Source: Escherichia coli (GTDB lineage: Bacteria; Pseudomonadota; Gammaproteobacteria; Enterobacterales; Enterobacteriaceae). From it: a stretch of 64,000 nucleotides of DNA. The stretch lies in assembly GCF_048403405.1 (NCBI RefSeq), contig NZ_CP183129.1; one strand, 5' to 3'. This document shows positions 37,201 through 40,200 of the stretch, piece after piece. Numbering within the stretch: position 1 is the stretch's first letter; each line of letters begins with the position of its first letter. The position numbers were made by a program.

Positions 37201-40200
37201 CGTGGGCGTCCTGCCTGTTCGTTATCTTTGATATAAAATCTAACTTAACTTAGTTTTAATGGCAAGAGAAAACACCAAACTTTTCTTAGTTCGGTGTTTT
37301 GGTTAGAGAAAAGGGGGGGCTAGAGTTCGTATTGAACTCCTTTGACTACACCAATGATGAGGCAATTACCATTGATCGGGATGTTGGGGTACCGGGGATT
37401 TAATGGCACTAAAAACTTTTGAGGGCCATCGATAACTAATTTTTTTACTGTGGCTTCGTTTGTTCCATCAAGTCTAGCGATGACTATTTTTCCATGCCGG
37501 GGTTCTGCATCAGGATCTACAATCACTGTTGCGCCTTCTGGTATTGTTGGGAGGCCGTTAGGGTTAGTCATGGAGTCGCCTTTAACCTCCAATGCAAATG
37601 AGTTATCACCAATCTTTAATGATGTATCTACCCACTTGTCTACTTCACTAAACACTTCTGCTGTCCTGCACTCAGTAAACTGCCCAGCCTGAACCCACGA
37701 GATTACAGGAACTCTGCGCATGTTTGTGACGAGTTTGCCTTCAAACTCCGCACCATAAAGAATGTAATCTATTGACGTATTGAAGAACTTCGCTAATTTT
37801 GAAAGTGCTTCCCCACCAGGGACATTGATGTCTTTCTCCCAGTACCCCACAGCAACGTCACTTACTCCACAAAATTTACCCAATTCTTTCTGGGACGTTC
37901 TGGTAACTCTTCTCAGAGCTTTTATACGCTGACCAACCGTTTCCATAGGAGCACCATTTCTTTAATTACTAAGTAATCTTAGTTTTTATTGACCTAAGAT
38001 AGATTGATAATTAACATCTAATAAAACTTAGTTTGGAGGGCATATGACGACTGACGATATCGAAAGCTACTTCGGCAGCATTGAGAAAGTTGCTGCTTTT
38101 TTCGGCATAACAACTGAAGCCGTTTATCAGTGGCGAAACCGTCCTGGCCAGTTAATTCCAAAAGGACGTGCAGCAGAGGCTGCATATAGAACTTGCGGAC
38201 GGTTGCCATTTAAACCTGAGCTTTATGAAAAATCTAATGGATAAATCGATTTACAGAAACCACAGATATGAGGGCTTAAACGTGGGTAAAGAACCTGAAT
38301 GGAAAGTTGATAAGCAACCAGCATGGCTGGTGGCAGCAATACGAAGAACGATTGCTGATTTACCTCATGGCTATGAGGAAGCAGCAGAAATTCTTGGTTT
38401 GTATAAATCTGATGATATCACCCCAGCAAAAGATCAATTGCATAACAGACTGCGTAGCGGTGGGGATCAAATTTTTCCACTTGAGTGGGCCATGGTTTTA
38501 CAGGATGCCAGTGGTACCAGGCATGTAACGGATGCAATAGCCCGTCGTAGTAATGGGGTGTTTGTGCCGCTGGTGGTCATTGATGACATTGACAATGGTG
38601 ACATTAATCAGCGGCTGATGGAGTCAATAGAATGGATTGGCAAGCATTCCCAGTACTTACGCAAGGCAACTGCTGATGGAGTTATTGACCAGGCTGAGCG
38701 TGAGCAAATCGAAGAGAACAGCTACCAAGTAATGGCGAAGTGGCAGGAGCATTTAACACTGTTATTTCGTGTTTTTTGTGCGCCGGAAAAGAGTAACGCC
38801 CGCGAGTGTGCAGCTCCGGGCGTCGTGGCGTCGATTGCTTCTGGTTGTGGAGAAACTAACGCATGAACAGTTTAACAACACACTACCGTCGCTCGCAACT
38901 GATTGCGCTTCCTGTACCGGGTGGAAAAGCGAAGGTGGAGTATTGCTATGCAGTGAATGTACCAGGTGACAGGGAAATTGTAACCCACAGCTTTGCAGAG
39001 TGGGCTGTGGGTGATTTCAACCGGCAGAAGGAGACAGTCCTTTGCGACAAGTTAACCGCTGGTTCAAAGATCACCACGGAGTGCCCGTCAGAGTCATTCG
39101 TTGGGAGCCGGAAACACAACGGGTTATCTACCTCCGTGAAGGCTATGAACATGAATGCTTCAGCCCACTTGAGCATTTCAGGCAAAAGTTCAGGGAGATA
39201 AGGGACGATCATGAGCAAACCAGTAATGATTGATTCTGATAATTCTGGGCGTTATATTGTTCTGGCAGCGGCAAAATCCGTTGCCGGGATTGGCGTCCTG
39301 AAATTGATTACTGAGCATAACCGCGCTCATGCGGTTTTTTCGTGTCATGAGCATTGCTACGCCCAAATTATGGTGGGGCGTACAGGGCCGACTTCGGTCG
39401 GGCCGGGTTCGGTAGTCTCCGGTAACGCCAACCCTGTACGTCTCACCACCTCTGTGATTGGCGTCCCATGTGGTGAGTTTTCTAAAAAACTGACTACCGG
39501 GGCTGTCACTATGACTACTCTCCCAACCCTCTCTCAACCTGAAATTGCCATCGTTGATGGTCAGGCTGTTACATCTTCTTTGGCTGTTGCTGACTTCTTC
39601 TCTAAACGTCATGACGATGTTCTGAAAAAGATTCGCATTTTGGATTGTTCTCCAGAGTTTTGTGCCCGCAATTTTGCGGAGACATCAATTTTGGTACGCC
39701 AGCCCAACGGCGGTACTCGCAAACTACCTTGCTATCAAATAACCCGCGATGGCTTTGCGTTTCTTGCTATGGGTTTCACGGGTAAACGTGCTGCCCAGTT
39801 CAAAGAGGCATACATCAATGCCTTTAACCAGATGGAACAGGCGCTGATCGGAAAGGTTGATACTTCATGTGTCGCGCACAATGCCCACGTTGTTTACCTC
39901 TACATGGCTGAAATTCACCGCGTTTGGTTAGAACAACTTTATCCGATGCTGGTTTCAGTTCAGTCTCCGCTGGCTTCATCGCTCTACGACTACATCAACG
40001 ATGGTGTATTCGTTGCCGGGCTGGTGGACTCGGAACTGAACGAAAAGCATAAGGAGGTGCGTAAGTGAGCACCAAATTAACCGGCTATGTATGGGATGGT
40101 TGCGCAGCGTCAGGCATGAAATTATCCAGTGTGGCAATTATGGCCCGTCTGGCTGATTTCAGTAATGACGAGGGTGTGTGCTGGCCATCAATTGAAACCA

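Follow-up and report, generated by a model that had tools for sequence, protein, structure and literature searches.

Overlap of the ymfM reading frame with a DUF4222 gene in an e14-like prophage of Escherichia coli

Within a 64,000-nucleotide (nt) stretch of Escherichia coli DNA (assembly GCF_048403405.1, contig NZ_CP183129.1; the whole stretch is referred to below as the window), two open reading frames (ORFs) lie on the same strand. They belong to an e14-like lambdoid prophage, within its immunity and early-right (PR-type) operon. The first, ORF1, is ymfM, and the second, ORF2, is a gene of the DUF4222/RgdR family. An initial annotation, made from the sequence alone, had reported that the two overlap by about 160 nt in different frames, and the ORF listing places the overlap at positions 39042-39201 (160 nt); relative to ORF1, ORF2 is read in the -1 frame. 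Three explanations had been put forward, namely that the first gene does not extend over the whole of its ORF, that a frameshift, real or artefactual, fuses the two, or that the long overlap is genuine. The locus therefore raises the question of whether one stretch of DNA carries two genes, and of what keeps the ymfM frame open across the DUF4222 gene. The answer that appears probable, although well short of certain, is a genuine same-strand overlap in which the tail of ORF1 would serve as a translated bridge.

Two annotation traditions each display half of the locus. Records from the Prokaryotic Genome Annotation Pipeline (PGAP) contain only a 'DUF4222 domain-containing protein' (WP_071594037.1) and leave positions 38867-39041 empty, and RAST-type phage records contain only a 'putative protein YmfM'. 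The RefSeq record of E. coli K-12 lists ymfM, with the embedded DUF4222 ORF carrying no annotation there. The 701 nt between positions 38700 and 39400 recur with 100 % identity in six complete E. coli chromosomes, so that a sequencing artefact is ruled out as the cause of the overlap, and parts of this stretch are matched in 2,752 of 5,426 genomes.

The ymfM and DUF4222 reading frames

The first 91 residues of ORF1 are identical to those of YmfM of E. coli K-12 MG1655 (b1148, 'cell division inhibitor YmfM'), which likewise comprises 112 amino acids (aa). The K-12 gene occupies the same position after ymfL, has the same ATGA start and contains the same embedded DUF4222 ORF, with both ORFs intact in the K-12 e14 prophage (embedded ORF of 59 codons with a TTG start; positions 3502-3681 of the locus catalogued as L270, corresponding to about 1204001-1204180 of NC_000913.3). 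It differs in the last ~20 residues of YmfM, because ORF2 differs there. ORF1 matches PHROG 1170 (E 7e-65) and its N-terminal domain matches PHROG 20047 (E 1e-42). The ratio of non-synonymous to synonymous substitution rates (dN/dS) of this domain in the ORF1 frame is 0.1-0.35. The domain occurs in at least four divergent yet alignable sequence types, with conserved M1, N2, L4, Q12, P17, G20, Y29, V49 and G50, and is predicted by AlphaFold (AF2) to form three strands and a helix (predicted local distance difference test, pLDDT, 65-84), with no meaningful match returned by a fold search for ORF1. In phages without a DUF4222 gene, the N-terminal domain is encoded as a stand-alone ORF of 59-78 aa, for example in Hafnia phage yong2, Providencia phage PSTRCR_117lys, Citrobacter phage phiNP and an Entomohabitans prophage, with further representatives of 59-68 aa. 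The stand-alone ORF of yong2 begins on the stop codon of the upstream gene, and at the four loci examined such ORFs end on the start of the following gene or just beyond it. By its conservation and its predicted fold, the product of the first ~60 codons of ORF1 is a conserved small phage protein.

The initial annotation had described ORF1 as protein-like for about 65 aa and low-complexity thereafter, which agrees well with the Ser/Thr/Gly/Ala-rich composition and predicted disorder of residues 67-112 (pLDDT 35-38). Its suggestion of a first gene shorter than the ORF holds for the conserved folded part of ~60 aa, which matches in extent the stand-alone forms found without DUF4222, but not for the frame, which is kept open to the end of ORF1. 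It had further looked to homologues for an independent, conserved full-length protein. Full-length homologues of 108-117 aa, down to ~46 % identity, do keep the frame open, but the sequence of the tail is not conserved among them. As a separate observation, an exhaustive phmmer search matched ORF1 residues 19-50 (38917-39012) to giant repeat proteins of the Listeria-Bacteroides type (Flg_new / InlB B-repeat), with up to thirteen matches per protein and E-values down to 5e-26; this similarity possibly reflects the resemblance of a shared beta-hairpin motif.

ORF2 had also been considered protein-like throughout, and it exceeds the threshold of the Pfam family DUF4222 (PF13973; 64.6 bits against a gathering cut-off of 27, E 6e-18, residues 2-53). 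Its homologues form more than 120 protein clusters of 59-70 aa across the Enterobacteriaceae, and its dN/dS of 0.02-0.15 indicates that it is under strong purifying selection. The AlphaFold model comprises a four-stranded small barrel and a helix (pLDDT 82), and the fold search returned a generic resemblance to KOW, Tudor, SH3 and KorB-C domains (best E 0.04). The AAGGAGA ribosome binding site and TTG start proposed for ORF2 are present as described (Table 1), and purine-rich, Shine-Dalgarno (SD)-like runs occur at the equivalent place in homologues starting with ATG, GTG or TTG. ORF2 would be translated from this SD and TTG start of its own and is, as judged from its substitution pattern and modelled structure, an ordinary, strongly conserved small beta-barrel protein gene. 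No match for either ORF1 or ORF2 was found in NCBIfam or PADLOC.

The same data bear on the proposed frameshift, whether programmed (-1), mutational or a sequencing error, which would fuse the ORF1 N-terminal domain to DUF4222 in a protein of ~120 aa. ORF2 does lie in the -1 frame of ORF1, and a few database proteins (P0029, P0055, P0060 and P0066) are fusions of the N-terminal domain with DUF4222; these, however, show four different junctions and derive almost all from single short assemblies. Stop codons in the ORF2 frame occur 3-237 nt 5' of the ORF2 start (3-18 nt in many loci), ORF2 is equipped with an SD and a start codon of its own, and a fusion needs no open ORF1 frame downstream. A scan of 179 distinct homologous regions for slippery heptamers (X_XXY_YYZ) found none in the window and none conserved, the best candidates occurring in 33/179 and 15/179 regions at different positions; the latter is T_TTA_AAG, at +22 from the ORF2 start. 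No conserved stimulatory RNA structure was detected at the ORF2 start in ten lineages (minimum free energy z-scores of -1.9 to +1.4), and RNAalifold on the aligned start regions of these lineages yielded essentially no consensus structure. On the basis of the heptamers, the RNA folding, the upstream stops and the inconsistent database fusions, together with the identical sequence in six complete genomes, the frameshift was rejected as highly improbable. The T_TTA_AAG heptamer of the fifteen regions lies in the ORF1 frame inside ORF2, is absent from the window and is of the bacterial -1 frameshift type; it occurs sporadically and could allow some frameshifting in the phages that carry it.

Exclusion of stop codons from the ymfM tail

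Conservation of the open ORF1 frame was assessed in 270 loci (the window, public viral contigs, phage records and bacterial genomes), which yielded 136 distinct 162-nt ORF2 cores. The ORF1 frame is free of stops over ORF2 codons 1-52 in 136/136 cores, and the third frame contains stops in 135/136. When the synonymous codons of ORF2 were resampled from local codon usage, the ORF1 frame remained open in an average of 8.5 % of trials; among ten representatives differing mutually at 45 % or more of the codons for identical amino acids it is open in all, with a joint probability of 10^-10.7, or of 10^-5.9 under a conservative null in which each gene's own codons are permuted. A stop in the ORF1 frame arises where an NTA or NTG codon of ORF2 is followed by an A-initial codon, or an NTA codon by a G. 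Val, Leu and Ile codons end in A or G in 0/450 cases before an A-initial codon and in 0/138 cases before a G-initial codon, as compared to 253/644 before a harmless C- or T-initial codon. The same dependence is evident at individual positions. For example, Val16 is encoded by GTC in 68/68 cases before AGA and by GTC, GTT, GTG or GTA before CGN, Ile19 by ATA in 46/127 cases before C and 0/6 before A, and Leu43 by CTT or CTC before G, with TTG and TTA found only before T (CTC and CTT also before C). As a negative control, all 37 distinct DUF4222 domains of the RgdR type, which have no upstream ORF1, were found to hold two to four stops in the equivalent frame, by which a composition artefact of the DUF4222 fold is ruled out. 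A more divergent DUF4222 subfamily has the same architecture, with a 117-codon ORF1 over a 55-codon DUF4222 ORF. These comparisons show that stop codons are selectively excluded from the ORF1 tail, and they favour the genuine long overlap among the initial proposals, with both frames open in every relative examined and stops in the ORF1 frame avoided.

The amino acid sequence of the tail follows a different pattern. When the window is compared with a homologue from a Klebsiella phage, identity counted from the translations is ~85 % for ORF2, ~63 % for the ORF1 N-terminal domain and ~35-40 % for the tail. Synonymous differences in ORF2 are at least as frequent as those in the N-terminal domain of the same pairs (0.72 versus 0.57 in the most diverged bin), the nominal 'dN/dS' of the ORF1 tail is 1.4-5, and the synonymous sites of ORF2 are not slowed. 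Since these sites evolve fast, and a change at any third codon position of ORF2 falls on a second position of the ORF1 tail, the tail is without detectable constraint on its amino acid sequence, which, as far as substitution patterns can tell, is free to vary. Purifying selection on amino acids in both frames of the overlap was thus not found; in the ORF1 frame only the avoidance of stops is selected.

A passive origin of the open frame was weighed against these results. According to the view embodied in the RefSeq pipeline, the overlap contains no gene other than ORF2; a real small ORF may precede it, but the openness of its tail would follow passively from common ancestry and from the codon usage of ORF2. 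The annotation of DUF4222 alone in PGAP records, the unconstrained tail and the relatedness of the homologues are compatible with it, and the missing third-base G before G-initial codons indicates some inertia. It is nevertheless improbable, as synonymous sites are near saturation between lineages (proportion of synonymous differences, pS, up to 0.72) and yet a stop never occurs, at one and the same alignment position the codon chosen depends on the base that follows it, RgdR-type genes hold their two to four stops in the equivalent frame, and the joint probability does not exceed 10^-6.

A further ORF spans the overlap on the opposite strand (38946-39218, 90 codons), and two phage records list a hypothetical protein for it. 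Being codon-aligned with ORF2, it can be closed only by TTA, CTA or TCA codons, and it is open in 109/133 homologues; its openness is ascribed to chance (P 0.3-0.5), and it is probably not a gene. Rfam searches revealed no RNA element within 38863-39233, the matches beginning at 39252.

The tail as a candidate translated bridge

Both ends of ORF1 have the geometry expected of translational coupling, with a stop codon overlapping or within ~10 nt of a start. The ATG of ORF1 overlaps the TGA of the ymfL-like gene (38864-38866) as ATGA, an arrangement found in ~195 of 205 distinct homologous regions. At the other end, the ORF1 stop corresponds to positions +158 to +160 of ORF2, and the ATG of the next long ORF follows 9 nt later. 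This layout of stop, 9 nt and ATG is present in ~150 distinct loci and is independent of the downstream gene family, which includes O-like (MSTKLTGY), MSLLMPSR, MSMELMVR, Ash/Rha (MSKPVMID) and other proteins. In a sublineage in which ORF2 starts with GTG (E. coli prophages L112, L271 and L272) there is no stop in the ORF1 frame, which continues into the Ash/Rha ORF; the resulting ORF of 387 codons passes through the isrK/C4-like region into Rha and is annotated inconsistently in RefSeq, NZ_CP060974 listing a single 'Rha family' protein and NZ_CP020514 a partial DUF4222 pseudogene together with Rha. In another sublineage the ORF1 frame ends 10 nt past the next ATG.

These arrangements suggest the following model. 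In the stand-alone relatives the small ORF would be coupled at both ends, to the CII-like gene before it and to the gene after it. In loci with an intervening DUF4222 gene, the ymfM frame would have been extended by 52 codons across it and all stops removed by selection, which suggests that it matters that ribosomes reach the start of the next gene. Ribosomes in the ORF1 frame would have to arrive at the end of the tail, and, judged from the geometry, hand-over to the downstream gene by termination-reinitiation is the most likely reason for the open frame. The tail would in this way act as a bridge that preserves the ymfL-ymfM-next-gene coupling chain across the inserted gene.

The main rival to the translated bridge is that the tail is needed as protein, YmfM requiring a disordered C-terminal extension of roughly given length and composition but of any sequence, for example for stability, proteolytic control or the binding of a partner. 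Stop avoidance is accounted for equally well by this explanation and by coupling, the predicted disorder of the tail agrees with it, and the long form of YmfM has been reported to block division in K-12. A role of the tail as protein is considered rather unlikely, since the synonymous sites of ORF2 bear no sign of amino acid constraint from the tail, the stand-alone homologues manage without one, and the end of ORF1 follows the start of the next gene and not a fixed tail length, the frame entering the next ORF in one sublineage and ending 10 nt past the next ATG in another. The passive by-product and the frameshift fusion are both much less likely than this rival.

Several points weigh against the translated bridge itself. 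The genes are repressed under normal growth, and a literature search found no ribosome-profiling or proteomic data for the locus; the coupling role is read from the geometry. The end of ORF2 also adjoins or just passes the downstream start, and ORF2 alone could supply the coupling. The downstream ATG has a purine-rich, SD-like stretch of its own, and the ORF that begins at 39211 overlaps RNA genes of the isrK/C4 type and may be something other than a conventional protein gene. With regard to the codon data, the harmless third-base G before G-initial codons is as absent as the harmful A, so that the pattern may in part reflect inertia or another codon preference, and because the homologues are related the pooled codon counts overstate their independence.

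Related systems are known from phages. In the immI region of phage P1, icd is an upstream ORF whose translation, and not its peptide, serves the next gene, ant. The Rz/Rz1 genes of phage lambda are embedded on the same strand, with both peptides functional and constrained. As in Rz/Rz1, two same-strand products would be obtained from one stretch of DNA in different frames, each from its own start; unlike in Rz/Rz1, only ORF2 is constrained in its amino acids, and the ORF1 frame is constrained only to stay open. At the isrK locus of Gifsy-1, the nucleotide sequence of orf45 is conserved and its peptide variable, its stop overlaps the start of anrP, and anrP, which lies downstream, depends on the translation of orf45 (PMC4825925). 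It is the documented precedent for a translated bridge. The ymfM locus resembles orf45-anrP in its ATGA or nearly abutting stop and start codons, in the retention of the frame but not of the amino acids, and in the existence of in-frame fusions with the next gene. It differs in that ORF1 has a conserved N-terminal domain, in that the free part of ORF1 overlies a second, older and conserved gene in another frame, and in that coupling in the ymfM locus is suggested by sequence features.

The SfiC assignment and the surrounding operon

The overlap bears on the identity of SfiC, the e14 division inhibitor, which was assigned to ymfM in 2020-21 on account of filamentation and Z-ring inhibition (Ansari et al., bioRxiv 10.1101/2020.11.19.390815). 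In that study the whole 'open reading frame' was cloned in pBAD24 and whole-gene deletions were used, with no mention of DUF4222 or of an overlap (bioRxiv 10.1101/2020.11.19.390815), and the literature search found no publication linking ymfM to an embedded gene. The 339-bp ymfM ORF includes the SD, the start and codons 1-53 of the DUF4222 gene, and with these the whole Pfam domain. Because the embedded ORF lies within ymfM except for its last 20 nt, deletion of ymfM should remove or disrupt it too. Since all the experiments that define ymfM as SfiC rest on a clone or a deletion that affects both ORFs, the filamentation phenotype is not yet assignable to either product. It is tentatively suggested, as a possibility more doubtful than the overlap itself, that the SOS-inducible SfiC is, or also requires, the embedded DUF4222 protein, with the tail under selection only for staying translatable across a second gene. 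Two single-base changes separate the products and make this directly testable: C39048T introduces a stop at codon 3 of ORF2 and is silent in ORF1, and C39095G introduces a stop at codon 78 of ORF1 and is silent in ORF2.

RgdR (ECs1581) is the only DUF4222 protein that has been studied; it is encoded in prophage CP-933C/Sp7 of enterohaemorrhagic E. coli (EHEC) O157:H7 and regulates type III secretion and motility (Flockhart et al. 2012, PMC3378721), so that the single characterised relative of the embedded gene is a virulence and motility regulator. RgdR binds DNA non-specifically, and its RGD tripeptide has been reported to be functionally important (PMC3378721). Both ORF2 and RgdR (82 bits) exceed the Pfam DUF4222 threshold, and both are small, basic and prophage-encoded. 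RgdR differs in its length of 99 aa, its location in a P4-like element 5' of a primase, and its RGD motif, which is absent from ORF2; RGD is an EHEC-lineage-specific motif and not a criterion of Pfam DUF4222. Furthermore, no ORF reads through rgdR from upstream, the +1 frame holding two to four stops. A regulatory role of ORF2 in type III secretion or motility would be an extrapolation from this kinship.

The locus also represents a clean natural example of a frame that is selected to stay open while its peptide drifts freely. Frames selected for openness only are missed by gene finders and by overlap detectors based on dN/dS. Both ORFs are individually known already, as are same-strand overlapping genes as a kind. 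The maintenance of this pair as an overlap, the selection of one frame for openness only, and the bearing on the SfiC assignment appear to be unreported.

Table 1 Features of the overlap and of the surrounding operon (positions in the window)
Feature	Position	Strand	Remarks and evidence
LexA-family cI-like repressor	37320-37946	-	
cro	38044-38244		
ymfL-family (CII/CP76-like) regulatory gene	38282-38866	+	PGAP annotation of identical sequence; NCBIfam NF041471, E 8e-54
SD-like GGAG of ORF1	38849-38852	+	10 nt 5' of the ORF1 ATG; read from sequence
ORF1 (ymfM)	38863-39201	+	ATG start, 112 aa
ORF1 N-terminal domain	38863-39041	+	~60 codons; dN/dS, PHROG 20047, AF2, stand-alone homologues
AAGGAGA Shine-Dalgarno of ORF2	39028-39034	+	7 nt before TTG; read from sequence
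ORF2 (DUF4222/RgdR-family gene)	39042-39233	+	TTG start, 63 aa
ORF1 tail	39042-39201	+	52 codons + TAA, in the +1 frame of ORF2
Junction of ORF1 with next long ORF	TAA 39199-39201; ATG 39211-39213	+	9-nt spacer, same frame
'Rha/Ash' ORF	39211-40068		285 aa
c4-a1b1 (Rfam)	39252-39304		44.3 bits, just under cut-off
isrK (Rfam)	39265-39341		68.6 bits; ends in terminator-like hairpin 39319-39336
C4 antisense RNA (Rfam)	39366-39453		82.3 bits
O-like HTH (helix-turn-helix) replication gene	40065-41006		

The gene following ymfM and DUF4222 is an O-like replication gene in K-12 e14, and in the window an isrK/C4-Rha antirepressor module (Table 1). Compared to K-12 e14 and phage SKA5, this module (39218-40064) is an insertion between ymfM/DUF4222 and the O-like gene, and similarity breaks off directly after a common ATGAGCA, where the next gene starts. 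Codons 1-100 of the 39211-40068 ORF (39211-39510) yield a Pfam Phage_ASH match and coincide with the three Rfam matches. By analogy, the stretch 39211-39510 looks like an antirepressor control module of the P1 immI or Gifsy-1 isrK-orf45-anrP type. The true start of Rha/AnrP is probably the ATG at 39511, and the 'Ash' protein family may in part be a conceptual translation of RNA genes.

On the upstream side, the start of the ymfL-like gene differs between a mechanical ORF call (38168-38866; 232 codons, with a GTG start overlapping cro) and PGAP (start at 38282; 194 codons), and the NCBIfam match of the protein starts at residue 17 of the 194-codon form. Within the O-like replication gene, a 15-nt unit (TCTGACCCGTCAAAA) is repeated 4.3 times at 40374-40437. 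Weak Rfam mir-5880 matches at these repeats were discarded as spurious, and by analogy with lambda O the repeats are probably origin iterons.

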